A DNA stretch of 32,000 nt from contig OZ246409.1 of the NCBI GenBank assembly GCA_965231035.1, positions 61,101 to 93,100 of the forward strand, in the 5' to 3' direction. How positions within the stretch are numbered: the stretch's first letter is position 1; every line of letters begins with the position of its first letter. Under the pieces are notes generated by a model, which was not told the DNA's origin, did no database searches, and worked only from the letters and a program-made list of their open reading frames with translations. This stretch comes from an uncultured Muribaculaceae bacterium. Lineage in GTDB: Bacteria > Pseudomonadota > Alphaproteobacteria > Rs-D84. Below are positions 8,241 through 28,452 of the stretch, in pieces. Position numbers and translations under genes: made by a program.

Positions 8241-8269
8241 AAAAAAACACGGCATCAGCCGTGTTTTTT
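8241..8269. terminator. bidirectional intrinsic terminator
   Basis: AAAAAAACACGGC-ATCA-GCCGTGTTTTTT sits between convergent genes. The smpB TGA stop (8255-8257) lies in the loop. Confidence 0.7.
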
Positions 8270-8725
8270 AATTCTTTCTTTTTCTCGATTCCATTCGCGT
8301 TGTTTTATTGTTTGACGTTTATCCAGTTGTCTTTTACCGTATCCAATTCCCAACAAGACTTTTAACTTTCCGCGATTATTAAAGTACAATTTTAATGGAA
8401 ATGCAGTTGCACCTTTTTCCTGTAATTTCCCAATTATTCTGTTTATTTGTGAACGATGCAGCAACAACTGGCGAGAACGGCGTTCATCAAAGTTAATTAT
8501 TTTTGCAGCGGTTGGCAGTTTTTGTATTTCCACACCAGCCAAAAATAAATCACCACCACGATTTTGAACAAACCCGTCAATTATATTTACCAAACCATAA
8601 CGAACAGATTTCAATTCTGCACCGGTCAATGAAACTCCAGCCTCGATTGTGTCTTCAATCGAGTAACTGAATCTTGCTTTGCGGTTTTCTGAAACCTGAC
8701 CAAATTTTATTATCTGACGTGGCAT
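8255..8725 (-). CDS. smpB: SsrA-binding protein SmpB
   Basis: 156 aa. ENRKARFSYSIEDTIEAGVSLTGAELKS, GGDLFL and HRSQI motifs, with a basic C-terminal tail. Ends in TGA, so the genome uses the standard code. Confidence 0.93.
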   Translation of the reverse strand: MPRQIIKFGQVSENRKARFSYSIEDTIEAGVSLTGAELKSVRYGLVNIIDGFVQNRGGDLFLAGVEIQKLPTAAKIINFDERRSRQLLLHRSQINRIIGKLQEKGATAFPLKLYFNNRGKLKVLLGIGYGKRQLDKRQTIKQREWNREKERIKKHG

Positions 8726-11588: not shown

Positions 11589-12806
11589 TTAGCAAATTTT
11601 ACCCGTAAAATGCAAATCAGAAATACCCAAAATTTCCAAGTTGCAAACTGTTTTTGCAGGTATTTTTTCGCCTTCAATTTTAATCTCAATATCATCTGGA
11701 GTACGGGCGACATTTCTTTCTTCAACCAGAACTTGGCATATTGTTCCGATTTTAGATTTCATAAATTCAAATTTATTTTCATCACCAATATCAGAAAGTA
11801 TTTTAACACGTTTTTTTGATTCAGATTTATCGACTTGTCCTGACATTTCCGCTGCAACAGTTCCGGGACGTGCAGAATACGGAAAAGCATGAATTTTAAT
11901 AGGCTTTAATTTTTGTGCCAAATCAGCAGTTTCTGCGAACAATTCATTGGTTTCGCCTGGAAACCCGCAAATTATATCCCAACTGAAAGAAACAAATTTA
12001 TCCGACATAATTTTTTGAACCATTTCAGAATTATGTCTGCGACGCATTAATCCCAGTATTTTATTACTGCCTGACTGCATAGAAAGGTGCAGGTGCGGCA
12101 TCATTCTGGGTTCTGATTTCATCAATTCAATAATTTTGAATATTTCTGGGGATGCTGGATCCATCGAAGACAAACGCAATCGCTGAATTTTTGGAACATC
12201 CTGTAACAGTCTTTTGCAAATATCCGATATAAAAGAACCTTTGTCGGCATAACAAGCAATATCAACACCCGTCAGAACAATTTCATAAAACCCATTTTTA
12301 ACAGCATTTTCAGCTTCGGATAAGATTTTTTCGTATGGAAATGATACGCTTTTACCCCTTAACAGTCTGGTTATGCAATAAGTGCATTCATGATTACAAC
12401 CGTTTTGAATTTGTATAAATTGCTTGGAAAGTTTTGATTCGTGGTGATTGAATTTTGATATTTCTGGCTGGGTCTTGAAACAAGGCGAAGTTTCTAAGGC
12501 ATTGGAATAAGCATCCAGATTCAGCTTTTCTTTATTTTCTATGACGATAGTGTTTGGAATCTCGGCAAACAAAATGGGATTTCTGGTCGAAGCACACCCA
12601 GTTACAAAAATAGGTGCGTTTGGGTTTTCTCGGGCAAGTCGGCGTACAGCTTGGGCGGATTGTCGTTCGGCCTCGGCTGTGACTGAACAAGTATTAACAA
12701 CAATCGCACAATCCAGCACAGGCGATAACAAATCCCTGATTTTTTCAGTTTCTAATGCGTTCAAACGGCATCCGAAAGATAAAGTTTTTATATTTTTTTC
12801 TTGCAT
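11589..12806 (-). CDS. mtaB: MiaB-like radical-SAM methylthiotransferase, MtaB type
   Basis: UPF0004 N-domain (SFGCRLNALE, VVNTCSVT), radical-SAM CNHECTYC and a C-terminal TRAM-like region. Confidence 0.72.
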   Translation of the reverse strand: MQEKNIKTLSFGCRLNALETEKIRDLLSPVLDCAIVVNTCSVTAEAERQSAQAVRRLARENPNAPIFVTGCASTRNPILFAEIPNTIVIENKEKLNLDAYSNALETSPCFKTQPEISKFNHHESKLSKQFIQIQNGCNHECTYCITRLLRGKSVSFPYEKILSEAENAVKNGFYEIVLTGVDIACYADKGSFISDICKRLLQDVPKIQRLRLSSMDPASPEIFKIIELMKSEPRMMPHLHLSMQSGSNKILGLMRRRHNSEMVQKIMSDKFVSFSWDIICGFPGETNELFAETADLAQKLKPIKIHAFPYSARPGTVAAEMSGQVDKSESKKRVKILSDIGDENKFEFMKSKIGTICQVLVEERNVARTPDDIEIKIEGEKIPAKTVCNLEILGISDLHFTGKIC

Positions 12807-15521: not shown

Positions 15522-18500
15522 TTATACAGTGTCGTGACCACCACTTGAACCGCCGTCATAAGAACCATAAGATGGCCACATTGTATATCCGTCTTTACAT
15601 TGACGATTACATTTCTTTGTGGATGAATTCCAAATCATTGTTCCAGTGTCATCTTCATATCCGCTGATATCACAAATAGGGTCACATTGATTATGGTCTA
15701 AGTTGTATAACTCTCCTTGATACATACAAGAAGCAATTTCACAACCACGAGCATAGCTGCTGACTGCTGGTTCGTTCAATATACTGTATTTGTTTTTGCA
15801 CTGACCGCATGGTTTTGTATGATCATTAGTTTCAGAATACTCAGATGTATATCCTGGGTTACAAGATTTTACCTGGCATGCACCCCAAGAATTAGTAGAG
15901 CTATTCCATTCCTTGGTTCCTGAACCATTATCAATCACACAATCTTGTTCATCCGGAACGCAAGTATTAGATGATACATGATATCCATCAACACAAGTTT
16001 GGACTTTGCATGTGCTGTAAGAATTCTTAGATGTATTCCAAATCTTAGAAGCTGATTCTGCATTAGAAACACTGCAATCTATTGTATTTTCTTCACAAGA
16101 TTGTCCATTTGGATGATATCCGGATACGCAAGATTCAACTTCGCAATTGTTTCCGGATTTATACGATACAGCGTTATCACGATCGCAAGGCTGACATACC
16201 CCATTTACCATTTCATATGAGTTTGAACAAGTTGTTGAAATTAAACATATTGGGTCTGATGTATAACCACTGTTATCGTAATGATAACCACCGGGTGTCG
16301 GAATATAAGTTCCCGGGCATGACGCCAGATATACACAATAGTTTGGATAATTTTCTGTTGTGTTCTTTGGTGTTTTAACGGCACCTGTTGGTGGTGCAAT
16401 ACTTACAGTAGAGCATGTTTGATAGCAATCATTAACAGAATCATGATCTATTGGGAGCGTTTTCCCAGTGATATGATATCCGCTTGAAGTGTCACAAGTG
16501 TTCAATATAGAAATATTTCCATATGTTACCGTATTTGTATCTATGTATTTATCATTAGTTGAAAGAACTGTACAACTGTGTCCAGCAATTGAAACATACT
16601 GACCTGGGGTGCATATGATTGCACATTGGCTTTGGCTTGTTAAACCTGTACCACCATTGATGTAATCTACAGGACAGTTATAATTTCCCCCACCTATGCC
16701 TGTACCATAATAAACCAATTCGCCGGGGCAATAGTAACCAGCAGGGCATGTTATACAAGTTCCTAAGTCACCAGAATCAATTCCATCTACATAAGTCCCA
16801 GCAGGGCAATTTATAGCACATTGATCTTGACTTGATAATCCGATTCCACCATCTACATTATTAGCAGGACATTCTGTTGGAGAATTTGTATTTCCGTACA
16901 AAATAAGTGCAGACGGACAATAATTACCAGCAGTGCAAGTTGTAGCAGTTGTATCATTTGCGTTTGCAATATAAGTACCGGCAGTTGTTTGTATTTGACA
17001 CTGATTCTGATCAGTTAAACCAGTTCCACCATCTACATAATTAGTTGGGCAAGTTGTTAATCCACCTGTGCTGCCATAAGAAACCAACGTAGATGGACAG
17101 TAATTTCCAGCAGTGCAGGTTGTAGCAGTCGTAGCATTAGCAGTTGCAATATAATTACCAGCTGTTGTTTGCCATTTACATCCTGTTTGAGTAGTTACGC
17201 CAGTTCCACCATTTACATAATTAGTTGGGCAAGTTGTTAATCCACCTGTGCTGCCATAAGAAACCAACGTAGATGGACAGTAATTTCCAGCAGTGCAGGT
17301 TGTAGCAGTCGTAGCATTAGCAGTTGCAATATAATTACCAGCTGTTGTTTGCCATTTACATCCTGTTTGAGTAGTTACGCCAGTTCCACCATTTACATAA
17401 TTAGTTGGGCAAGTTGTTAATCCACCTGTGCTGCCATAAGAAACCAACGTAGATGGACAGTAATTTCCAGCAGTGCAGGTTGTAGCAGTCGTAGCATTAG
17501 CAGTTGCAATATAATTACCAGCTGTTGTTTGCCATTTACATCCTGTTTGAGTAGTTACGCCAGTTCCACCATTTACATAATTAGTTGGGCATGTAGATAA
17601 ACCAGTATTAGTAGCTGTTGAATTAGTTGCAGTTACACCTGCACAATAATTACCAGCGGTACAAGCAGAACAGGCACGACTGGTCTCGGTTGTATTATAT
17701 AAAAAGTAATTACCAGCAGAACAAGTCAAACTCCAAGGACAAGCATTAGCCCCACTACCAGTTCCAACATAGCTGGCAGCACTTGGTTTATTAGAACAGC
17801 TTGTACAGCTTTGTATTGCAGCACCATAATAATATGTTCCAGCTGCACGGTATGTTCCAGAAGAACAAGTACTGATTATATTACTGTTTGCTGTGGATAT
17901 GTATTTATCTGCAGTCAGAATAGTATTTGGAATATAACAAGCAGTATTTGCAGAAGATCCCGAAACAGAACTAGTATAATTACTTCCCAGTGTTGTACAT
18001 GCTGTAATACCTTGATCTGAAGAGCTTAGACCAAATACTCCGCCCAGACAATAATTTCCGGCAGTACATGTTGAACAGGTTGATGAATTTCCGGGTAAAT
18101 ATTGACCAGGATCACATGTTGCACTAGATTGTGTCCAATGTGCATATAGTGTTGCACCAGAAGTTTTATCCCATACTCGCGCAGATGCACCAGAAGATGT
18201 GTAATACTGGGTTCCACCACTTATCGCATCATAGTAACCTACGAATACATAATTTGTAAGTGTCGGCATAGTTGCAGTTGGCATTGCAGAATTATATGGT
18301 GCAATAACAGATGCAGTTCCCCCAGTTCCACCTTGTGCATCAAGTGTTACTAAATATGTAATTGGTGAACAAGTATCTCCTGAAATACCATATCCAGCTG
18401 CACAACTTATTACTGTGCATAAATTATTTGTAACGTTCTCGCTGAAATCCCAAGTCGCTACATCCCATTCTGTTTCATAACCAGTATAATTAGAGCAGTT

Positions 18501-20507
18501 TATATCACACTCAGTATAACCATCATTAGATGTGGTTGTACCACCTTGACATGGAATACATTCTTCAGATGTATCTCCACTGTATGATCCAACTGCGCAA
18601 TTAGAACATCCTGCCCAACCAGGTAAAGAATAAGTTCCGGGTTCGCAAGGTTCTAAATCGCCAGAATATCCATAAGTAACTAACGTAGCAGGACAGAAAT
18701 ATCCAGCAGGGCATGTTGATAAAGTTGTATCATTTGGAGTTGCAATGTAATTACCAGAAGTTGTTTGAATCTGACACTGCGATGCGGCAGTTTTACCCCC
18801 TGTTGTGTTTGCTGTATAATTGGTCGGACAAGCTGTACAACTGGTTGCTGTTCCACCAGCACTGTAAACCGCACCAGAACATTGTGAACAAGTAGCTGTT
18901 GAAGCATTATTGTTTGCAATTATATAACCAGCATTTGCAGTTACCCCGTATGTACTTGCTGGCCAAGCACTTCCAGTATACGTAACTTGTTGTGATGTTA
19001 CAGTCGCACATCCTGTTATAGTTTTAGTTGGAGCTGTATATCTGCAAGTAGTATTTGCATTATATGGACTTACAGAAGTATAAGTACCACCACTTGGGTT
19101 GACCCCAGGTAATGAATTGCATGCAATGCAAGTTGTTGCTGTTCCGCCTGTGCTGAATGTTGGACTGCTGCAGGCTGAACATGTGGCTGTGGAAGTATTA
19201 TTGTTCGCGATTATATATCCACTGTCTGCAATTACCCCGTATGTGCTTGCTGGCCATCCAGAACCAGTATACGTAACCTGTTGTGATGTTACAGTTGTGC
19301 ATCCTGTTATAGTTTTAGTTGGAGCTGTATATTTACATGCAGTGTTTGCTGAACTTCCAGTAGTTGATGTTGTATATGTACCACCACTAGGACTTACACC
19401 AGTAAGAGCACTACAGCTAGAACATGAAGTCACAGAACCACCAGCACTATATGTGCCAAGTCCACAAATACTACAAGTTGCACTTGAAGTATTATTGTTT
19501 GCAATTATATAACCAGCATTTGCGGTAACACCATAAGTACTTGCTGGCCATCCAGAACCGGTATACGTAACCTGTTGTGATGTTACGGTTGCGCATCCAG
19601 TAAGGGTCTTGGAAGGTGCTGTATATTTACATGCAGTGTTGTCGGTACTTGCTGTAGAAGTTGTTGTGTATGTTCCACCACTTGGACTTACACCGGTCAA
19701 TGAGCTACATGCTGTACAAGCTGCCACAGCTTGTGATGACGATGTTTTAAATGTTCCAGCAGAACACGCAGTCCAAACTGCATAAACAGTAACTGCTGAA
19801 GAAGTTGTTATTGAAAAACTTCCGGATGTAGCACCAGAACTGGTACTCCAACCCGATAATACGTATCCGGCCCTGTAATATGAAGTTGTTGCACCACTGT
19901 TCAAAGCACAAGAAGAACCAACATTACAAGTTGTAGCACTTGGCGCAGTTCCAGAACCACCATTCAAATTATAAGTAACTGCAACAGTAGTTGGTGTCCA
20001 TTGAGCATATAATGTTGTATCGTTTGATATCGGCCACGTAGAGAATAATGATACGCCATAACTATCAAACATCATTTCACCCAAGTATGTCTCTTCGTTG
20101 TATCCCACAAATTTATAACCATCCCTCGTTGGAATATAAACATCCAACCCTTGCATAGATTGACCATAAGAAACTTGAAAAGAACCTTGGTCCCCCCATG
20201 AGGCACCACCACCCCATCCACCTTGGTCATCAAGCGTTACAGTGTATAAAACACTTGCAGGACAAGCAGTTCCACCAGCACAGGTATAATTAGAACCAAA
20301 AACCGAGCAGGCACGGCAGGCATTTCCCGCCGCGGGTGTTGGCGCACAAGCTGTACTGGTAGAGCTTGCAGTCATATAATATCCAGATGCGCAAGAGGTA
20401 TATTTCAAATATGTGGGGCAAGTATAACCGGCAGCAAACGCATTACCGGCAAAAAACACTGTTGATAAAAATGCGAAAATACGCAGTAAATTCGGGACTT
20501 TTCTCAA
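15522..20507 (-). CDS. giant secreted Cys-rich repeat protein (1661 aa) with three Flg_new/InlB-B-type modules and multiple CxxC..G.Y repeat families
   Basis: TTG start at 20507 with GAGAGGAAGA RBS. Signal peptide MRKVPNLLRIFAFLSTVFFAGNAFA. Modules ending TLYAQWT, VYAVWT and LYAHWT. Three 98-aa repeats, at least six 60-aa repeats, and C-terminal C.V.SC..GYH modules. Confidence 0.85.
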   Translation of the reverse strand: MRKVPNLLRIFAFLSTVFFAGNAFAAGYTCPTYLKYTSCASGYYMTASSTSTACAPTPAAGNACRACSVFGSNYTCAGGTACPASVLYTVTLDDQGGWGGGASWGDQGSFQVSYGQSMQGLDVYIPTRDGYKFVGYNEETYLGEMMFDSYGVSLFSTWPISNDTTLYAQWTPTTVAVTYNLNGGSGTAPSATTCNVGSSCALNSGATTSYYRAGYVLSGWSTSSGATSGSFSITTSSAVTVYAVWTACSAGTFKTSSSQAVAACTACSSLTGVSPSGGTYTTTSTASTDNTACKYTAPSKTLTGCATVTSQQVTYTGSGWPASTYGVTANAGYIIANNNTSSATCSICGLGTYSAGGSVTSCSSCSALTGVSPSGGTYTTSTTGSSANTACKYTAPTKTITGCTTVTSQQVTYTGSGWPASTYGVIADSGYIIANNNTSTATCSACSSPTFSTGGTATTCIACNSLPGVNPSGGTYTSVSPYNANTTCRYTAPTKTITGCATVTSQQVTYTGSAWPASTYGVTANAGYIIANNNASTATCSQCSGAVYSAGGTATSCTACPTNYTANTTGGKTAASQCQIQTTSGNYIATPNDTTLSTCPAGYFCPATLVTYGYSGDLEPCEPGTYSLPGWAGCSNCAVGSYSGDTSEECIPCQGGTTTSNDGYTECDINCSNYTGYETEWDVATWDFSENVTNNLCTVISCAAGYGISGDTCSPITYLVTLDAQGGTGGTASVIAPYNSAMPTATMPTLTNYVFVGYYDAISGGTQYYTSSGASARVWDKTSGATLYAHWTQSSATCDPGQYLPGNSSTCSTCTAGNYCLGGVFGLSSSDQGITACTTLGSNYTSSVSGSSANTACYIPNTILTADKYISTANSNIISTCSSGTYRAAGTYYYGAAIQSCTSCSNKPSAASYVGTGSGANACPWSLTCSAGNYFLYNTTETSRACSACTAGNYCAGVTATNSTATNTGLSTCPTNYVNGGTGVTTQTGCKWQTTAGNYIATANATTATTCTAGNYCPSTLVSYGSTGGLTTCPTNYVNGGTGVTTQTGCKWQTTAGNYIATANATTATTCTAGNYCPSTLVSYGSTGGLTTCPTNYVNGGTGVTTQTGCKWQTTAGNYIATANATTATTCTAGNYCPSTLVSYGSTGGLTTCPTNYVDGGTGLTDQNQCQIQTTAGTYIANANDTTATTCTAGNYCPSALILYGNTNSPTECPANNVDGGIGLSSQDQCAINCPAGTYVDGIDSGDLGTCITCPAGYYCPGELVYYGTGIGGGNYNCPVDYINGGTGLTSQSQCAIICTPGQYVSIAGHSCTVLSTNDKYIDTNTVTYGNISILNTCDTSSGYHITGKTLPIDHDSVNDCYQTCSTVSIAPPTGAVKTPKNTTENYPNYCVYLASCPGTYIPTPGGYHYDNSGYTSDPICLISTTCSNSYEMVNGVCQPCDRDNAVSYKSGNNCEVESCVSGYHPNGQSCEENTIDCSVSNAESASKIWNTSKNSYSTCKVQTCVDGYHVSSNTCVPDEQDCVIDNGSGTKEWNSSTNSWGACQVKSCNPGYTSEYSETNDHTKPCGQCKNKYSILNEPAVSSYARGCEIASCMYQGELYNLDHNQCDPICDISGYEDDTGTMIWNSSTKKCNRQCKDGYTMWPSYGSYDGGSSGGHDTV
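17034..17591 (-). repeat. three perfectly identical 180-bp tandem units (60 aa each) inside the giant gene
   Basis: 17041-17220, 17221-17400 and 17401-17580 are identical base for base. Diverged copies of the same 180-nt period flank them, at least at 16861-17040. Each unit encodes TCPTNYVNGGTGVTTQTGCKWQTTAGNYIATANATTATTCTAGNYCPSTLVSYGSTGGLT. Confidence 0.95.
18828..19766 (-). repeat. three imperfect 294-bp (98-aa) tandem repeats inside the giant gene
   Basis: Protein repeats start at C267, C365 and C463 (C[SN][SA]L[TP]GV.PSGGTYT...TGC.TVTSQQVTYTGS.WPASTYGV...GYIIANNN). Recurring nucleotide strings include gcaattatataaccagcatttgc at about 18916 and 19501. Confidence 0.8.
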
Positions 20508-20729: not shown

Positions 20730-22043
20730 TTGGCAAAGCAAGTGAAAATGTGTCAATATTACAAAATGAGTTTAATCGCACCGATTTTGAATGAATCCCA
20801 ACTGAATGCTTTTGACACAATCGAGCATACCAACAATAACATCTTGATATTGGGCCAGGCGGGAACAGGGAAATCTACTTTTGTAAACTATTTGAAAAGT
20901 GCCTCTAAGAAAAGAATCATCTGTGCATGTCCCACGGCGGTTTCTGCATTGAATGTTGGCGGGCAGACAATCCATTCACTGTTTCAAATCCAGCCACGTG
21001 ATTTTATTATGCCTGAATTTTTGAAGTTAAAGGCTAAACCCAGAAATGTAATGAATGCCGCGGATATCTTAATTATTGATGAGATTTCAATGGTTGCACC
21101 TGATTTGTTGGACGCGGTTGATATACTTGCACGCCAGGCGCGAAAAAATAATATGCCATTTGGTGGATTACAAATTGTTGCCATAGGGGATTTGTTCCAG
21201 CTGCCGCCAGTGATAACCCAAGATGCACAAAAATATTATGAACAAGAATATGGATTTTCAAATTCATACTTTTTTGACAGCAATGTTTATAAACGGTCAG
21301 ATTTTATAAAAGTAAATTTTGATTTGGTTTATCGTCAAAGCGACAAATCATTACTGGATAACCTGGTTCGACTAAGAAACAATGAAACCGATGCCCTGGA
21401 ATTTTTTAACAGTTGCAAAATTGAAGATTTATCACGCAGATCAAATGCTGTGATTATTACACCTTTTCGTGCTGTTGCAGAAAAAATAAATACAGACAGG
21501 TTGGCGCAAATAAATTCTGAACCGGTTTCCTATCGTGGTGAATTGAATGGAAATTTTCGTGAACAAGATGTTCCATCACCATTGGATTTGGTTTTAAAAG
21601 TTGGTGCTTTGGTTATGTTTACCCGAACCGTTCGTGAATATGGCGAAGATTGTTTTAATGGTCGTATGGGAATTATACAAAAATTAGAAGCAAAAGAAAT
21701 TACAGTAAAACTTTTGAATCAAAAAAATGATATTGTTAAAATCAAGCCTGAAAAATGGACCAAGATTGAATATGCCTATGATGAAAATAATAAACTGATT
21801 GAAAACGAAACTGGTTCATACAAACAGTTTCCTTTGGCATTAGGTTATGCGATGACGATACACAAGGCCCAGGGAAAAACATTAGATTCTGTGATTGTTG
21901 ATATTTCACGCGGGGCTTTTGCACATGGACAAACTTATGTTGCATTGTCGCGTACCAGAAATGCATCAGATATGCATATTCCAAATCCGCTTCGTCAAAA
22001 AGATATAATATTTGATGCCAGGGTATTGGATTTTATAGCATAA
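20730..22043 (+). CDS. pif1: Pif1-family SF1B DNA helicase
   Basis: Walker A GQAGTGKST and Walker B IIDEISMV. Pif1 signature region LLDAVDILARQARKNNMPFGGLQIVAIGDLFQLPPV. C-terminal TIHKAQGKTLDSVIV and YVALSRTR. The start is uncertain: TTG 20730, ATG 20748 or ATG 20766. Confidence 0.8.
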   Translation: MAKQVKMCQYYKMSLIAPILNESQLNAFDTIEHTNNNILILGQAGTGKSTFVNYLKSASKKRIICACPTAVSALNVGGQTIHSLFQIQPRDFIMPEFLKLKAKPRNVMNAADILIIDEISMVAPDLLDAVDILARQARKNNMPFGGLQIVAIGDLFQLPPVITQDAQKYYEQEYGFSNSYFFDSNVYKRSDFIKVNFDLVYRQSDKSLLDNLVRLRNNETDALEFFNSCKIEDLSRRSNAVIITPFRAVAEKINTDRLAQINSEPVSYRGELNGNFREQDVPSPLDLVLKVGALVMFTRTVREYGEDCFNGRMGIIQKLEAKEITVKLLNQKNDIVKIKPEKWTKIEYAYDENNKLIENETGSYKQFPLALGYAMTIHKAQGKTLDSVIVDISRGAFAHGQTYVALSRTRNASDMHIPNPLRQKDIIFDARVLDFIA

Positions 22044-22373
22044 TTATTTGCTTTTTTTACAAATAAAAATTTTACACAAACCAGGTCTGTTTTTATAAAT
22101 AGAACATTCGGCTCTTTTATCTAAATTAAAAGACAAGAAAGGACAATAAGGTCTGTCTAATTTTCCAGTACGAACTTTTTCTAATTGCTCAAATGATGTT
22201 TTTGGAATTATATGTGGACCCAGATTCCAATCATCAGATATTTCAACAAACTTTATATTTAATCCAGTAAATAGTTTCTTAGCTTTTTTGTATTCACCAG
22301 AAATCTCAAAGAATGCAGGAACTTTGCAACATTCGCCGCATCTTTGACATTCAAATGAATTTTCTTTGTTCAT
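22044..22373 (-). CDS. YkgJ-family Cys-cluster (CxxCxxCC) zinc/iron-chelating domain protein
   Basis: FECQRCGECCKV near the N-terminus plus downstream Cys residues (YCPFL, CSIY, CKIFIC). ATGA overlap with the upstream gene. Confidence 0.72.
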   Translation of the reverse strand: MNKENSFECQRCGECCKVPAFFEISGEYKKAKKLFTGLNIKFVEISDDWNLGPHIIPKTSFEQLEKVRTGKLDRPYCPFLSFNLDKRAECSIYKNRPGLCKIFICKKSK

Positions 22374-23416
22374 TTTATTTTCTTTTTATCTCGTAGATTA
22401 TAAAGCATGTTCTTATAAAATAAATTTCCGTTTTCCTCTGTGGTGTCAAAATTAAAATCACCCCCAGAAACCAGTTCGCGAATAGAAGGTAATGGACCAC
22501 CATTTATTGAATTTTTTAAACCGTTAATCAGGGCATTCCTTTCTGCTGTGAAAATTATTTTTCCATCATCTGTAAGAAGATGTTCTTCTTTTTTTGGAAT
22601 CCCGGAAGTAAAATGTTCGGCCCCTTCATCTTTCTTTGATTTTTTAACAATAAAAAAATTGCCTTTTTCTCCTGAAAAAAAACTTGGTTTAAGATTTTGA
22701 TCAATATTTTTAATATATTTATTAAACAAATTTTTGTGATCTAAAACTTCGTCCATTGCAGACATAAAAGATACTGTTGTGAATTTAGAATGTTCTAATG
22801 GGGATAATGGGGTATGAGCGATTATTAATAAGTTTTCTTGGATTTTTTTAATATCGTCTTTTGAATAACCTATCTTTGACATTTTATCGCCAATAAAATT
22901 TTCTAAATATTTTAATACGGTTGATCCATAACAATGAGTAAATATGACCAATTTTCTGACATTTTCTATTGCTTTTTCTAGGTCAATTTTTTCTGATTTT
23001 TTTCCAACAATTCTTGGTTTTATTAAAATATTATACAGATAATTTAAAAATAATGGTTCGGGCTCATTTTCCATTGTGTTTTTTATATCATGATTAAGAC
23101 ATTCTCGCAAAGTTGATATTTTCCTACGAGCTTTTTGAAAAATGTTAAGCTCATCAAATTCTGTATTTCTTGAATTGAAGTAGTATAATGTAGAATATAT
23201 ATTTACATCATTAATATCATTTTCTTTCAACAGGTAACTTAAACGCAATGCATAATTGTTTGCGGTTTTTTCAGATTCAGCTTTATTTCCTCCAAGTATA
23301 AACAGAACAGTTTTTATAACAGGTATGGAATCTACTAATTTTATTCCATAAATATTATCAATTGTTTTTGGTACACTTTGAATGATTTTAATTTCACTGG
23401 GAATATATTTATTCAT
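22370..23416 (-). CDS. hypothetical protein, 348 aa, possible alpha/beta-hydrolase-like fold with a Cys nucleophile
   Basis: Intact ORF translationally coupled on both sides by ATGA overlaps. A beta-strand-like KLVIFTHCYGS resembles a nucleophile elbow. No family recognised. Confidence 0.55.
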   Translation of the reverse strand: MNKYIPSEIKIIQSVPKTIDNIYGIKLVDSIPVIKTVLFILGGNKAESEKTANNYALRLSYLLKENDINDVNIYSTLYYFNSRNTEFDELNIFQKARRKISTLRECLNHDIKNTMENEPEPLFLNYLYNILIKPRIVGKKSEKIDLEKAIENVRKLVIFTHCYGSTVLKYLENFIGDKMSKIGYSKDDIKKIQENLLIIAHTPLSPLEHSKFTTVSFMSAMDEVLDHKNLFNKYIKNIDQNLKPSFFSGEKGNFFIVKKSKKDEGAEHFTSGIPKKEEHLLTDDGKIIFTAERNALINGLKNSINGGPLPSIRELVSGGDFNFDTTEENGNLFYKNMLYNLRDKKKIK

Positions 23417-23805
23417 ATTTTCTTTTCCATCAATATTGCATCAATACCGTCATAGTATTTTGGACGGGTGCCGATTTGTTTGTATTTATTTTTTTCATAA
23501 AGCTTGCGGGCAGGGGTGTTATTTTCTGCAACTTCCAAGAATATTTTTATAGCACCAGATTTTTTAATTTCGTTTTCTGCGATTGCCAACATTGCTTCTG
23601 CTATTCCGGATTTTCTTTGTTCCGGATTAACACCGATTGTTATAATTTCAGCTTCGTCCGTGACAACACGCCAAACCATAAAACCATTGTCGCTGGCGAT
23701 TACTTCGCATCCAGATTTTTTTAAGTCTGCAAAATCCTGTGCCGTCCAAGGGTTGTTCGGAAAACACAACCTATGAAGTTCGGCGATTTTATTTAACATT
23801 TGCAA
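23413..23805 (-). CDS. rimI: ribosomal-protein-alanine N-acetyltransferase (GNAT)
   Basis: 130 aa. GVNPEQRKSGIAEAML acetyl-CoA-binding motif and LEVAENNTPARKLYEKNKY. Classic position downstream of tsaB. Confidence 0.8.
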   Translation of the reverse strand: MQMLNKIAELHRLCFPNNPWTAQDFADLKKSGCEVIASDNGFMVWRVVTDEAEIITIGVNPEQRKSGIAEAMLAIAENEIKKSGAIKIFLEVAENNTPARKLYEKNKYKQIGTRPKYYDGIDAILMEKKI

Positions 23806-24383
23806 TTTAACTCGGCATAGCTGGGACGCATATACATTGGTATAACTGGTTCAGATTTTTTTGATTCTAATTTATTTTCAATTATTGTTAATGCATCTTT
23901 TAAGTCATAAGGTTTATGCCCAACTGTTTTTGCATATTCCATTTGTTTTGTTTCAATATCATCAATAGTCATTGTGCATGGTTCAATATTATGTGCAGCA
24001 ACAAAAAAGTCACCACGTTTTGAATCAATTGCGACAAAAGCATCCATAGACCTTGCTAGATAAATTTCAAAAGCATTCACAGGAATAACAGGAATATTTA
24101 AACCAATAGAAAGTCCCTTGGCATATGCAATTCCCAGACGAATTCCAGTAAAGCTGCCAGGGCCAACAACAATACCGATTGCAGATAAACCAGAAAATTT
24201 TAAATTATTTTTGCTGATAAATTTTTCAACAGCAATCGGTAATTCAACCGATTGTTTTCCATTAGAATTTTGATCGAAACTGATATGCTCTGATACAATC
24301 TTATTTTCGATAACATTATGTAAAACTATTGAAATTCCGGGCAAAGATGTATCTATCAAAAGTATGTTTTTATTATTTGTCAT
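23793..24383 (-). CDS. tsaB: tRNA t6A37 biosynthesis protein TsaB
   Basis: ILLIDTS...VVGPGSFTGIRLGIAYAKGL is the TsaB/YeaZ signature. Overlaps rimI by 13 nt. Confidence 0.82.
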   Translation of the reverse strand: MTNNKNILLIDTSLPGISIVLHNVIENKIVSEHISFDQNSNGKQSVELPIAVEKFISKNNLKFSGLSAIGIVVGPGSFTGIRLGIAYAKGLSIGLNIPVIPVNAFEIYLARSMDAFVAIDSKRGDFFVAAHNIEPCTMTIDDIETKQMEYAKTVGHKPYDLKDALTIIENKLESKKSEPVIPMYMRPSYAELNCKC

Positions 24384-24979
24384 TTTGAAAAACTTAAATT
24401 CCTTGGCATTTGTAACAACGTATTATAAATCTTTTCTGCGAATTCGCCAGTAATTTTGCATTCAAATTTATTAAAATCATTTTTTATAAAAATAAAATAT
24501 TTTCTATCTGAAGAACTTTTACCAGTAATTGTGCCTTTAATTGTATAACCGTAAGATTCTGCACAACAACAATCTCTGAATTCAAAAAAATTACCTTTTT
24601 TGTCTTTGATATGTTCACAACATTGTTCTTCAACTGTTACAGTTATACCAGATTTTTTTAATTTTTTACATAACTCATCTTGCTCGAATGGTGCAGTATT
24701 ACCATTGGTTTTTATTCTATACCAAATATCTGTTTTATCATGTTTCAAAAGTGTGTTAAATGCAATCCAAGGAAGAATACCAGACCATTTAAAATCACCA
24801 GCTGTTATAAAATACTTACTGCTTGGATTTCTTTTGATAACAGAAATTGAGGCGTTTCCATCATGGTTTGTGGTATACACATCAGAGTCGTAATAGGATT
24901 CAGGGTATAATATAAAAGGGAATTTTAAAATTTCATTAAAAACAGAAAATTTCTTTGTAATCTTTTCAAACAGATTCAT
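24380..24979 (-). CDS. hypothetical Cys-containing protein, 199 aa, occupying the position where the Lon protease domain would be expected
   Basis: Intact ORF 17 nt downstream of the lon stop, with an ATGA overlap with tsaB. Contains EEQCCEH and RDCCCAE clusters. No similarity to the S16 peptidase domain by eye. Confidence 0.55.
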   Translation of the reverse strand: MNLFEKITKKFSVFNEILKFPFILYPESYYDSDVYTTNHDGNASISVIKRNPSSKYFITAGDFKWSGILPWIAFNTLLKHDKTDIWYRIKTNGNTAPFEQDELCKKLKKSGITVTVEEQCCEHIKDKKGNFFEFRDCCCAESYGYTIKGTITGKSSSDRKYFIFIKNDFNKFECKITGEFAEKIYNTLLQMPRNLSFSK

Positions 24980-24996
24980 AAAGTTTTCCTTTTGAG

Positions 24997-26754
24997 TTAT
25001 ATTCTCACTCCGAACCCGATTTTCTTTGATAAGCCAGCAGATTTACGTAATGACAACAAAGAATCAATTTTTGTATTATCAAATTCTGTTTTGACATCTT
25101 CGCCATTGTTTTCCAACAATGTTCTGCGCAGCAATGCTGTTATTTCGCGTTGCAGTTCACGAACACCTTGTTCACTGGTATAATTGCGAATTATGTGACG
25201 AATTGATTCATCAGAAATAATAATATTTTCAGTGTTCCAACCAGTTCCTTTTGCGGCACGTTCAACCAAATGTTCGCGTGCAATTCTGATTTTTTCATCT
25301 TCGGTATAGCCTGGGATTTCAATAATTTCCATACGATCTTTTAATGCACTGGACATATTCAAGCTGTTTGCTGTTGCAATAAACAAAATATTAGACAGGT
25401 CAAAGTCAACTTCCAAATAATGATCGCGGAAATTCTTGTTCTGTTCTGGATCCAATATTTCCAACAAAGCAGATTCAGGATCACCACGATGGTCGCGACC
25501 AATTTTATCAATTTCGTCCAAAACAATTACAGGGTTGTCAGATTTGCAACGTTTTAAAGCGTCCATTATTCGACCAGGTTGTGAGCCGATGTATGTTTTG
25601 CGGTGTCCACGAAAGTGTGCTTCGTCTGAAATACCACCTAAAGAAATTCTTTGATATTTACGTCCTAATGCACTGGCAATAGATTTGCCCAGTGAAGTTT
25701 TTCCAACACCTGGTGCACCAACAAAACACAAAATACTGCCAGCATTAGTATTAGTTTTACGCATAACAGCAATGTGTTCCAAAATTCTTTCTTTGACAGA
25801 TTGCATACCTGTATGTTCAGAATCCAAAACATCCTTGGCCAGGTTTAAATCAATTTTACCTTTGTCTGATTTTCCCCAAGGCATTGATAACAATTCATCT
25901 AAATAAGTTTTTATTAATCCGCCTTCGTTTGACATAGGCGAAACACCACGCATACGGCGTAATTCTGACATCGCTTTATCTTTGGCATCAGAATGCATAT
26001 TTGATTTTTCAATACGAATACGAAGATTTTCTGAATCCATTTCTTCGGAATCTTCACCCATTTCTTTTTGAATTGCGCGAAGTTTTTCCTGTAAAATAGC
26101 ATCCCTGCGGCCACCTTCCAGTTGTTGATGTATACGGCGATTTATTGAATCTTCGATTTTTGCAGTTTCCAGAATCAAATTTACCTGTTCCAAAAGCATC
26201 ATTAATTTATCGCGCCAACTAGTCGCGGATAAAATCTTAACAGCAACCTCGGTATCCAAATTTGCCATCTGAATTACAGAATCAACAAAAGCAGGTAATG
26301 GGTAATTCTGCATAACTGCACGTAATTTATCCATTTTAAACTTTTTAACAATAGATAAATCTTGCATATTTTCTGCAATTTTATCACGCAATGCGAATGT
26401 CTGATCGAATTCAGAATCATTCAAGAGTTCAATAGGGTCAGCAAGACCCATAAATATTCCCTTTTCAACAGATATATCAGAAATATTGACAGCACCGGTG
26501 GTCTTAATAATTGAATGAACGGCACCATCAGGCATGCGCAAAACCTGGACAACATCACCCAATGTTCCAATATTAAAAATGTCATCTGGGTTTGTTGGAT
26601 AATTCCAAATATGCTGGGCAGCCAAAATTATTTTTTGATTTGCGGTCATTGCAGCCTCGACACAGGCAATCGACATTGGATTATCAATATAGATTGGCAC
26701 TGTCAGTCCGGGGTGAACAACCAAATCGCGAAGAGGTAAAATATATTCTTTCAT
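24997..26754 (-). CDS. lon: Lon-like AAA+ ATPase: Lon N-domain and AAA+ module, no S16 protease domain
   Basis: N-terminus YILPLRDLVVHPGLTVPIYI. Walker A GAPGVGKTS, Walker B VIVLDEIDK, sensor-1 FIATAN, DRMEIIEIPGYT and sensor-2 GVRELQR. Ends at residue 585 (..KKIGFGVRI-stop), where the protease domain normally begins. Confidence 0.85.
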   Translation of the reverse strand: MKEYILPLRDLVVHPGLTVPIYIDNPMSIACVEAAMTANQKIILAAQHIWNYPTNPDDIFNIGTLGDVVQVLRMPDGAVHSIIKTTGAVNISDISVEKGIFMGLADPIELLNDSEFDQTFALRDKIAENMQDLSIVKKFKMDKLRAVMQNYPLPAFVDSVIQMANLDTEVAVKILSATSWRDKLMMLLEQVNLILETAKIEDSINRRIHQQLEGGRRDAILQEKLRAIQKEMGEDSEEMDSENLRIRIEKSNMHSDAKDKAMSELRRMRGVSPMSNEGGLIKTYLDELLSMPWGKSDKGKIDLNLAKDVLDSEHTGMQSVKERILEHIAVMRKTNTNAGSILCFVGAPGVGKTSLGKSIASALGRKYQRISLGGISDEAHFRGHRKTYIGSQPGRIMDALKRCKSDNPVIVLDEIDKIGRDHRGDPESALLEILDPEQNKNFRDHYLEVDFDLSNILFIATANSLNMSSALKDRMEIIEIPGYTEDEKIRIAREHLVERAAKGTGWNTENIIISDESIRHIIRNYTSEQGVRELQREITALLRRTLLENNGEDVKTEFDNTKIDSLLSLRKSAGLSKKIGFGVRI

Positions 26755-26824: not shown

Positions 26825-27061
26825 TTAACGACGGTGTCCGCCATTGTAACCATTATATTGTGCACTATTGCTTGATTTTTTTGAAAGATAACGTGCAGCA
26901 ATCAAAATCAGCCATTCTAATGATAAAACAGCCAAAGCAAGTAATTTTAAATCCATACTGTCACTCATCCAACCCAAAATATAAACCAATTGTCCAACAA
27001 ATGAAATATACAAGATGCCGAATACGCCTGTGAAAAATATTTTTTTGATTTTTCCGAACAT
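26825..27061 (-). CDS. small membrane protein (78 aa, two TM helices)
   Basis: ATG 27061 with AAGGA RBS 7 nt upstream. FFTGVFGILYISFVGQLVYILGW and LLALAVLSLEWLILIAA. The track's longer N-terminus runs into the tmRNA gene and is rejected. Confidence 0.5.
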   Translation of the reverse strand: MFGKIKKIFFTGVFGILYISFVGQLVYILGWMSDSMDLKLLALAVLSLEWLILIAARYLSKKSSNSAQYNGYNGGHRR

Positions 27062-27083
27062 TTTTGTGTCCTTATTGTTAATT

Positions 27084-27311
27084 AAAAATTGCCCATCTTC
27101 TGGTGCCAGGTGATGGGCGACCCCGCAAAAGCTTAAGACACCACCAACAATTGTCGGCATTGTGTCAAACGCCAATTAGGCAGCTAATGCAACGCGAACG
27201 TTGTCGTTCGCAGCGATATTTTCGCCATTCAGTTTTTAACGGTTTTTTACGACACCATGTCGGATTCACTCGATTTGCTTTTATTTCGTCTGTCGAAACT
27301 ATGTCAGCCCC
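27084..27311 (-). ncRNA. ssrA: tmRNA coding piece (5' acceptor strand GGGGCUG with the G3:U pair, UUCGAC element, tag ORF, 3' hairpin)
   Basis: GGGGCTG pairs with CAGCTCC to give the G:U alanine identity pair. The tag ORF lies about 100 nt downstream. The 3' hairpin is GCCCATC..GATGGGC. Confidence 0.8.
27176..27211 (-). other. tmRNA tag reading frame encoding ANDNVRVALAA-stop
   Basis: Direct translation of the minus strand. An AND start and ALAA-TAA end match the canonical proteolysis-tag pattern. An additional in-frame GCT (27212-27214) could be the resume codon instead. Confidence 0.85.
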
Positions 27312-27315
27312 GTAA

Positions 27316-28452
<1,137 letters not shown>

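Follow-up and report, generated by a model that had tools for sequence, protein, structure and literature searches.

A 32,000-nucleotide stretch of contig OZ246409.1 (assembly GCA_965231035.1), hereafter the window, from an uncultured alphaproteobacterium of the order Rs-D84, carries a lon gene that encodes a substrate-binding domain and an ATPase motor and ends before the protease. The gene and its product are referred to here as lon'. The S16 peptidase domain and its Ser-Lys dyad are absent from lon', and the absence is a real deletion rather than a frameshift or a misassembly. There is strong reason to regard lon' as the functional lon orthologue of Rs-D84/Candidatus Enterousia, in which the S16 domain was cleanly deleted at the AAA+/protease boundary in a common ancestor, while strong purifying selection has maintained the remaining N domain, catalytically complete AAA+ motor, intact pore loops, and lid as an unfoldase/translocase powered by ATP.

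The product of lon' follows the layout of LonA (E. coli Lon; MEROPS S16), with the N-terminal substrate-binding domain, the long helix, the AAA+ module, and the Lon lid, and differs from it in lacking the whole of the S16 domain with its catalytic dyad. The open reading frame (ORF) and its Pfam domains (Table 1), together with the lack of any Pfam match to Lon_C (PF05362) in the protein, bear out a preliminary description of the locus as encoding Lon substrate-binding and AAA+ modules without a protease domain. An alignment to E. coli Lon (PDB 6u5z) covers E. coli residues 13–556 (E = 1e-131, 40% identity), and the full set of ATPase elements named in that description maps onto the E. coli protein. 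The Walker A motif GAPGVGKTS with K352, the pore-loop Y388, the Walker B motif DEID with D413/E414, sensor-1 N463, the arginine finger R474, and sensor-2 R532 correspond in the same order to E. coli K362, Y398, D423/E424, N473, R484, and R542, and all of them, the pore-loop tyrosine included, are invariant in 47 of 47 homologues. In E. coli numbering, lon' ends at residue ~590, which is the AAA+/protease boundary and the point at which the truncation had been placed. Against the NCBIfam equivalog model for endopeptidase La (TIGR00763), lon' reached 544.7 bits over model positions 2–567 of 795, under the cutoff of 608, and a full-length sister protein, P0125, reached 792 bits. Defence-system models (PADLOC) gave generic AAA+ matches only. 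An AlphaFold2 (AF2) model built on a shallow alignment (predicted local distance difference test score [pLDDT], 69; predicted template modelling score [pTM], 0.40) reproduced the Lon domain layout.

The truncated form is widespread within its order. In a scan of one genome per species of the GTDB, using query-specific peptide patterns, lon' was present in 47 species at 65–86% identity, after which identity fell sharply to ≤43%, the level of ordinary full-length Lons, and all 45 complete copies were 584–587 aa long. A protein database held more than 120 clusters at 74–100% identity to lon', nearly all of them 585–588 aa and none with Lon_C. Two much deeper branches came from an exhaustive search of 1.8 billion cluster representatives. 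Their proteins, P0121 with 593 aa (52% identity) and P0122 with 580 aa (50% identity), are likewise truncated, have the same end, and lack Lon_C. The hosts are metagenome-assembled genomes from gut and rumen, several of them named Candidatus Enterousia, belonging to the order Rs-D84 of the Alphaproteobacteria. Genomes of this order are ~0.75–1.0 Mb in size with ~850–900 genes, and their hosts are apparently partner-dependent (PMC12306168); given such extreme genome reduction, a retained gene of 585 aa is unlikely to be dispensable.

Selection on the gene was estimated from pairwise ratios of nonsynonymous to synonymous substitution rates (dN/dS) for 95 species pairs with dS of 0.2–1.5. The median dN/dS of lon' was 0.09, with values of 0.046 for the AAA+ core, 0.125 for the N domain, 0.10 for the lid, and 0.09 for the C-terminal segment. 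These values, and the persistence of the truncated form across lineages that are only ~50% identical, contradict the suggestion that lon' might be a decaying gene, and the low ratio of the AAA+ core with its invariant residues equally contradicts relaxed selection on the ATPase motifs. The alternative offered in the preliminary description, a neofunctionalised Lon-derived unfoldase, agrees with purifying selection of this strength and with motor residues that are all intact.

No remnant of the peptidase domain could be recovered. With Lon_C of E. coli or of the sister as query, tblastn (E ≤ 1) returned nothing in any frame of the window. An unfiltered profile of 87 Lon_C sequences (E ≤ 10; positive control, 260 bits) was likewise without a match in all six frames, and it found no relic in any frame of 55 related loci. 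Lon_C was also absent from ~0.9 Mb of Rs-D84 DNA. A frameshift, a split ORF, or a Lon_C relic downstream was ruled out on the basis of the six-frame tblastn and profile searches. A recoded stop codon or readthrough was likewise ruled out: lon' terminates in TAA (24997–24999), all of TAA, TAG, and TGA are used within the family, tryptophan is always encoded by TGG, and translation past the TAA would meet more stops at once. Independent assemblies carry an identical lon' gene and neighbourhood, and the assembly or indel error that might have accounted for the truncation is not seen. The reading of lon' as an artefact or pseudogene, whether through assembly or indel error or as a recently truncated gene in decay, draws on nothing beyond the first impression of a 'missing' domain and has a negligible probability; it is already refuted by the recurrence of the gene in independent assemblies, its common length in 47 species and more than 120 clusters, the variation of its stop codon among relatives, its dN/dS, the lack of a downstream relic, and the monophyly of a truncated clade that spans ~50% sequence divergence. 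The earlier proposal of a domain loss rather than a simple frameshift thus stands on the identical assemblies, the shared length, and the empty reading frames.

The loss can be placed by phylogeny and synteny. The nearest full-length Lon, P0125 (769 aa, 50% identity, intact Lon_C with PKDGPSAG), occupies the same lon-tsaB-rimI slot as lon', with tsaB overlapping the lon stop by 4 nt. In the distant lineage of P0122, also truncated, tsaB begins 3 nt past the lon gene, and tsaB abuts or overlaps lon' in at least 26 of 45 species. In a neighbour-joining tree of 548 shared columns, the truncated proteins were monophyletic in 182 of 200 bootstraps and P0125 was their sister in 200 of 200. The monophyly of the truncated forms, with the sister in the same slot, indicates that the peptidase domain was lost once and that the product has been kept since, and it makes lon' both the positional and the phylogenetic orthologue of full-length lon. 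The clade as a whole diverges unusually far, with an identity to E. coli Lon of 36–46% (40% for lon' itself) as against 60–63% for other alphaproteobacterial Lons. Of 33 loci of these other Lons that were examined, 26 show the canonical clpP-clpX-lon cluster, whereas Rs-D84 lon' has left that cluster and lies between tmRNA/obg and tsaB.

The orthology bears directly on whether lon' could be a redundant paralogue, with a normal full-length lon elsewhere in the genome and lon' acting as a regulator through mixed hexamers, sequestering of substrates, or an adaptor role. The genome scan leaves some room for this arrangement, having relied on query-specific peptide patterns that were not systematic for second lons. 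Yet lon' sits in the position of the sister lineage's full-length lon, genomes of only 0.75–1.0 Mb with ~850–900 genes make redundancy unlikely, and none of 33 full-length Lon loci came from an assembly that also carried lon'. Further, the search with the sister protease domain gave no close relative and no match named Enterousia. Overall, a redundant paralogue is very improbable.

Every truncated protein ends in a short tail, [K/R]-I-G-F-[G/S/C/N/R], usually followed by three residues, which is present in 120 of 120 database homologues, in 47 of 47 genomic copies, and in both deep branches. The I, G, and F are each invariant in the 47 genomic copies with every synonymous codon in use, the residue before them is always lysine or arginine, and the remaining flanking positions are variable. 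The spacing from IGF to the C-terminus is four residues in nearly all proteins, with seven in P0121 and six in the copy at locus L033. The tripeptide does not occur within the 30 residues before the protease domain in any of 89 full-length Lons, which instead carry LG-x-[RK]-[FY]-x-[FY]; the linker of the sister lineage reads RKYDFG and the ancestral linker pattern is LG-x-[RK]-[FY]-D-[FY]-G. Its absence from full-length linkers and presence in all truncated forms indicate that the tail arose from the linker through Y-to-I and D-to-G changes. The preliminary description had read the last residues of lon' (KKIGFGVRI) as the opening strand of the peptidase domain. Their counterpart is instead the inter-domain linker, which in E. 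coli is R583-FDYG-587, with the first strand (VGQVTGLAWT) beginning ~10 residues later. Conservation of the tripeptide through an overlapping ribosome-binding site of tsaB was considered and ruled out; as the codons run through every synonym and the motif is no less invariant in species with an insert between lon' and tsaB, the constraint acts on the protein and not on translation signals of tsaB.

The tail resembles a known docking element. The loop of E. coli ClpX reads GSGIGFGATV and the ClpX loops in outgroup alphaproteobacterial loci read SSIGFGADV and SSIGFEAEV, while tails of lon' proteins include KKIGFGARM, KKIGFGVRI, and NKIGFSARL, so that an IGF[G/S][A/V] core is common to the tails and the ClpX loops. 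The IGF loops of ClpX dock into the hydrophobic H sites of ClpP (PMC9035409). By this comparison, a mechanism may be proposed in which the former inter-domain linker was remodelled to a short, probably flexible tail ending in [K/R]-I-G-F-[G/S]-x-x-x-COOH, and in which its IGF[G/S][A/V] core would play the part of the tripeptide with which ClpX, ClpA, and ClpC occupy the H sites of ClpP. Six tails would hold the lon' ring on a peptidase encoded by another gene, with ClpP the likeliest candidate and with a topology like the C-terminal-tail docking of HslU and PAN, and a one-piece Lon would become a two-component protease that keeps Lon-type substrate recognition. By homology with Lon structures, the tail would exit the lid at the substrate-exit face, in the former position of the peptidase, and the low pLDDT of the tail in the AF2 model (Table 1) gives a weak hint that it may be flexible. 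The small downstream protein (orf199 in the window) would be an optional modulator or adaptor and not a core part. Judged from the motif, such a two-component protease with Lon-type substrate selection, its tails docked on a second protein that is most plausibly ClpP, is the favoured mechanism, at a likelihood somewhat short of an even chance. The more specific claim of a natural Lon/ClpP hybrid, in which a Lon-derived hexameric unfoldase docks ClpP by six linker-derived C-terminal IGF tails as a convergent re-invention of the ClpX docking motif elsewhere in the AAA+ fold, is on balance unlikely.

Several observations weigh against docking onto ClpP. No ClpP, ClpX, or other peptidase partner was found in the window, in the 10 kb beyond each of its ends, or in 0.78 Mb of flanking sequence from the 47 species, flanks that all sample one neighbourhood, make up ~2% of each genome, and are too local to count as absence. 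In ClpX, ClpA, and ClpC the IGF lies on a loop inside the large AAA+ subdomain, and in lon' on a C-terminal tail from the lid. Further, the change from YDFG to IGFG leaves the F and the following G as ancestral residues of the Lon linker, with only the I and the G new, such that the likeness to ClpX comes down to a short motif. The structural support for a flexible tail is weak, coming from a model with a pLDDT of 69 and a pTM of 0.40, and canonical LonA hexamers depend heavily on the protease ring, with the ring of lon' being predicted.

In a second reading, lon' would be a stand-alone unfoldase, chaperone, or remodeller without a peptidase partner, and selection would maintain activities of Lon that are independent of the protease (chaperone-like activity, DNA binding, or substrate remodelling). 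The tail would then plug the hydrophobic surface that once held the protease domain, stabilise the hexamer, or auto-regulate the pore. Such a role is consistent with the conservation of all the motor and N-domain features, for which a peptidase is not required, with the lack of a partner gene linked to the locus in any of the 47 species, and with the descent of the F and G of the motif from a linker that was in contact with the protease domain of Lon itself; ClpB is an example of an AAA+ unfoldase that operates without a protease. It is harder to reconcile with a motif that appeared together with the loss of the domain and that matches the one tripeptide known for ClpP docking, down to the next G/S and A/V. 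A structural cap has no obvious need of an invariant I-G-F on a poorly ordered tail near the C-terminus, and an outright loss of Lon proteolysis would seem costly under a high mutational load. A stand-alone function is the main rival, at a likelihood below even and close to that of docking onto a peptidase.

A third reading keeps the two-component protease and replaces ClpP as the partner with a separate S16 (Lon_C) domain from a split gene, with HslV, or with a family of small proteins encoded downstream of lon'. The last of these occupies the slot between lon' and tsaB, which is empty in most species and 290–930 nt long in 17 of 45. In total, 21 inserted ORFs from 16 loci form one family of 95–140-aa proteins, with tandem pairs in four species, a fused double copy at locus L004 (11865–12461), and further members at L025 (about 11776–12465) and in L027, L028, and L034. 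Members share an N-terminal pattern, MNI[IF]..i.Y..[IV]K.Y, and a C-terminal pattern, G..A[RK].[IL]Y..[LM]K, and contain no known domain. The family occurs in ~40% of Rs-D84 species, its presence or absence differs even among close relatives, and within the ~0.9 Mb of Rs-D84 DNA it is found only directly after lon'.

The occupant of the slot in the window, orf199, had no match to Pfam, NCBIfam, or PADLOC models and only one relative cluster (94% identity) among 5.8 billion proteins, and BLASTP comparisons between the downstream ORFs of four relatives detected no similarity. Residues 98–190 of orf199 nevertheless match the family profile after one iteration at 16.1 bits, a score reached by none of 2,000 shuffled sequences (maximum, 9.1). 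A single-sequence AF2 model, the structure prediction that had been proposed for this protein, gave a pLDDT of 32 and was unusable for assigning a fold. The small-protein gene is a lon'-linked, fast-evolving, and dispensable accessory gene of which orf199 is a divergent member. Of the two earlier statements about orf199, that it is unrelated is only partly right, since its C-terminal half belongs to the lon'-linked family; that it might be a partner of lon' retains the support of a family found exclusively after lon' and loses the obligate role, since the family is missing from more than half of the species and so is not the general partner. A role of orf199 as a conserved obligate partner was ruled out by this absence (at least 26 of 45 species) and by its fast evolution. 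Separately, the GC content of positions 22001–25000 is 0.29–0.31 compared to 0.36–0.43 in the surrounding housekeeping genes, and this low-GC stretch, which takes in orf199 and the 348-aa ORF, would fit sequence that evolves fast or was acquired recently.

A partner other than ClpP accordingly draws on the exclusive position of the small-protein family right after lon' in ~40% of species, with its occasional duplication or fusion, and on the binding of HslU and PAN to their peptidases by C-terminal tails. The small protein is absent even from the closest relative (L011) and from the distant P0122 lineage, however, and it evolves far faster than lon'. No stand-alone S16 domain resembling that of the sister was found among 5.8 billion proteins, in a search that was itself uninformative because the best matches to the P0125 protease domain were fragments of ordinary Lons (50–58% identity); Lon_C is missing from the ~0.9 Mb of Rs-D84 DNA, and the tails of HslU do not carry IGF. 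A non-ClpP partner is improbable.

Placed among known AAA+ machines, lon' combines traits of several groups. Like LonA it keeps all of the ATPase and pore residues, and it is set apart from LonA by its score under the TIGR00763 cutoff, its lower identity to E. coli Lon, its position outside the clpP-clpX-lon cluster, and its new invariant IGF tail. With ClpX, ClpA, and ClpC, whose docking loops carry IGF, IGL, or VGF, it shares the organisation of a hexameric-type AAA+ translocase without a peptidase of its own and, at the level of sequence, an I-G-F that has G/S and A/V next to it, on an element that is probably flexible. Similarity to ClpX is otherwise that of AAA+ proteins in general (25% identity, E about 1e-4, no ClpX model match), and substrate recognition in lon' would use the Lon N domain and not a zinc-binding domain. 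In HslU, PAN, Mpa/ARC, and the Rpt ATPases a short C-terminal hydrophobic tail from the lid inserts into pockets of a separate peptidase ring, and the predicted topology of the lon' tail at the exit face is similar; their motifs (HbYX, GQYL, or the HslU tail) differ from IGF and their partners are HslV or the 20S proteasome. LonC proteins, such as that of Meiothermus taiwanensis, keep the protease and have an inactive ATPase. Both LonC and lon' are natural Lon derivatives that have given up one of two catalytic activities, and lon' is the opposite case, with the ATPase intact and the protease gone.

Directly upstream of lon' and in the same orientation is a two-piece (permuted) transfer-messenger RNA (tmRNA) gene (Table 1), which was missed by ARAGORN. 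The proximity to ssrA that had been noted for this locus is thus real, and the same-orientation adjacency is conserved at loci L011, L021, and L033, with a gap of roughly 330–390 nt in the Enterousia-type loci checked; a tmRNA next to lon' was not detected at L008, L009, and L010. The encoded tag, ANDNVRVALAA, keeps the classical ALAA end, which hints at most weakly at the persistence of a protease that recognises LAA. The protein that partners tmRNA, SmpB, has its gene at 8255–8725 (-), ~18 kb from the tmRNA gene, so that a complete trans-translation pair occurs in one window together with the Lon-derived unfoldase. Two gene calls overlap the tmRNA. A 116-aa ORF at 26825–27175 (-) is probably spurious, and equivalents of 76–111 aa are annotated in public assemblies. 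The obg ORF at 27322–28452 (+) was called mechanically as 376 aa from a TTG at 27322, and with public obg calls of 333 aa the true start likely lies downstream of 27322.

On the other side of lon', the 348-aa ORF follows rimI in most of the relatives checked (348–368 aa, with overlapping stop and start) and looks like a conserved part of the gene string formed by lon', tsaB, and rimI. A small CxxCxxCC-domain protein (22044–22373) comes next in the window. A PIF1/RecD-like helicase (20730–22043, +) lies beside the gene string in most relatives checked, and its PADLOC matches to RecD-like defence components (best, 63 bits) probably reflect generic helicase similarity. Further along, a 1661-aa protein (15522–20507, -) has a Listeria-Bacteroides repeat as its sole recognisable feature and resembles a 1607-aa protein at locus L002; a possible role at the cell surface or in adhesion would be of interest for the proposed partner-dependent lifestyle.

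Table 1. Coordinates of lon', its domains, and neighbouring features in the window.
Feature	Position	Strand	Description
lon'	24997..26754	-	585-aa LonA orthologue without protease: N domain, AAA+, lid, and IGF tail
Lon N-terminal substrate-binding domain	26182..26742	-	Residues 5-191; Pfam PF02190 (LON_substr_bdg), 78 bits against a cutoff of 28.7
AAA+ ATPase core	25321..25731	-	Residues 342-478; Pfam PF00004
Lon-type lid (alpha) subdomain	25111..25245	-	Residues 504-548; Pfam PF22667 (Lon_lid); holds sensor-2 R532
C-terminal tail	25000..25044	-	Residues 571-585 (RKSAGLSKKIGFGVRI region); pLDDT 30-35 in the AF2 model
I579-G580-F581 tripeptide	25012..25020	-	ATC GGG TTC; preceded by an always-basic residue; candidate docking motif
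orf199	24380..24979	-	199 aa; 17 nt after lon'; species-level orphan, facultative accessory gene
tsaB (TsaD-family)	23793..24383	-	Conserved downstream neighbour; abuts or overlaps lon' in most species
rimI-type GNAT acetyltransferase	23413..23805	-	Conserved synteny partner of tsaB
348-aa ORF	22370-23416	-	No Pfam, NCBIfam, or PADLOC match
Two-piece (permuted) alphaproteobacterial tmRNA gene	27088..27440	-	Rfam RF01849, 146.9 bits; directly upstream of lon', co-oriented

LonA is the textbook AAA+ protease, with motor and peptidase in one chain and a protease ring that is seen as central to assembly of the hexamer. A search of full-text literature found no description of a natural LonA without a peptidase domain, and none of ClpP docking through a C-terminal IGF tail. 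lon' is clearly derived from Lon yet lacks a defining feature of the family, and its derived motif gives a specific and testable hypothesis. Homologues of lon' are annotated publicly as 'AAA family ATPase' or as 'ATP-dependent Lon protease', the latter a label that is wrong for these genes. If docking onto ClpP is true, AAA+ proteases would be able to exchange peptidase partners in evolution, a second structural solution for ClpP docking would exist, with relevance to ClpP-targeting drugs, and the economy of proteostasis genes in extremely reduced, partner-dependent gut bacteria would be explained. If lon' does not dock onto ClpP, it would be a clean natural model for the protease-independent functions of Lon. 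A large and well-sampled bacterial order has dropped the peptidase while preserving the motor and the substrate-binding domain over a very long period. This retention shows that selection can favour a Lon motor that has lost its protease, making the Rs-D84 lineage a natural experiment on the value of the motor alone.

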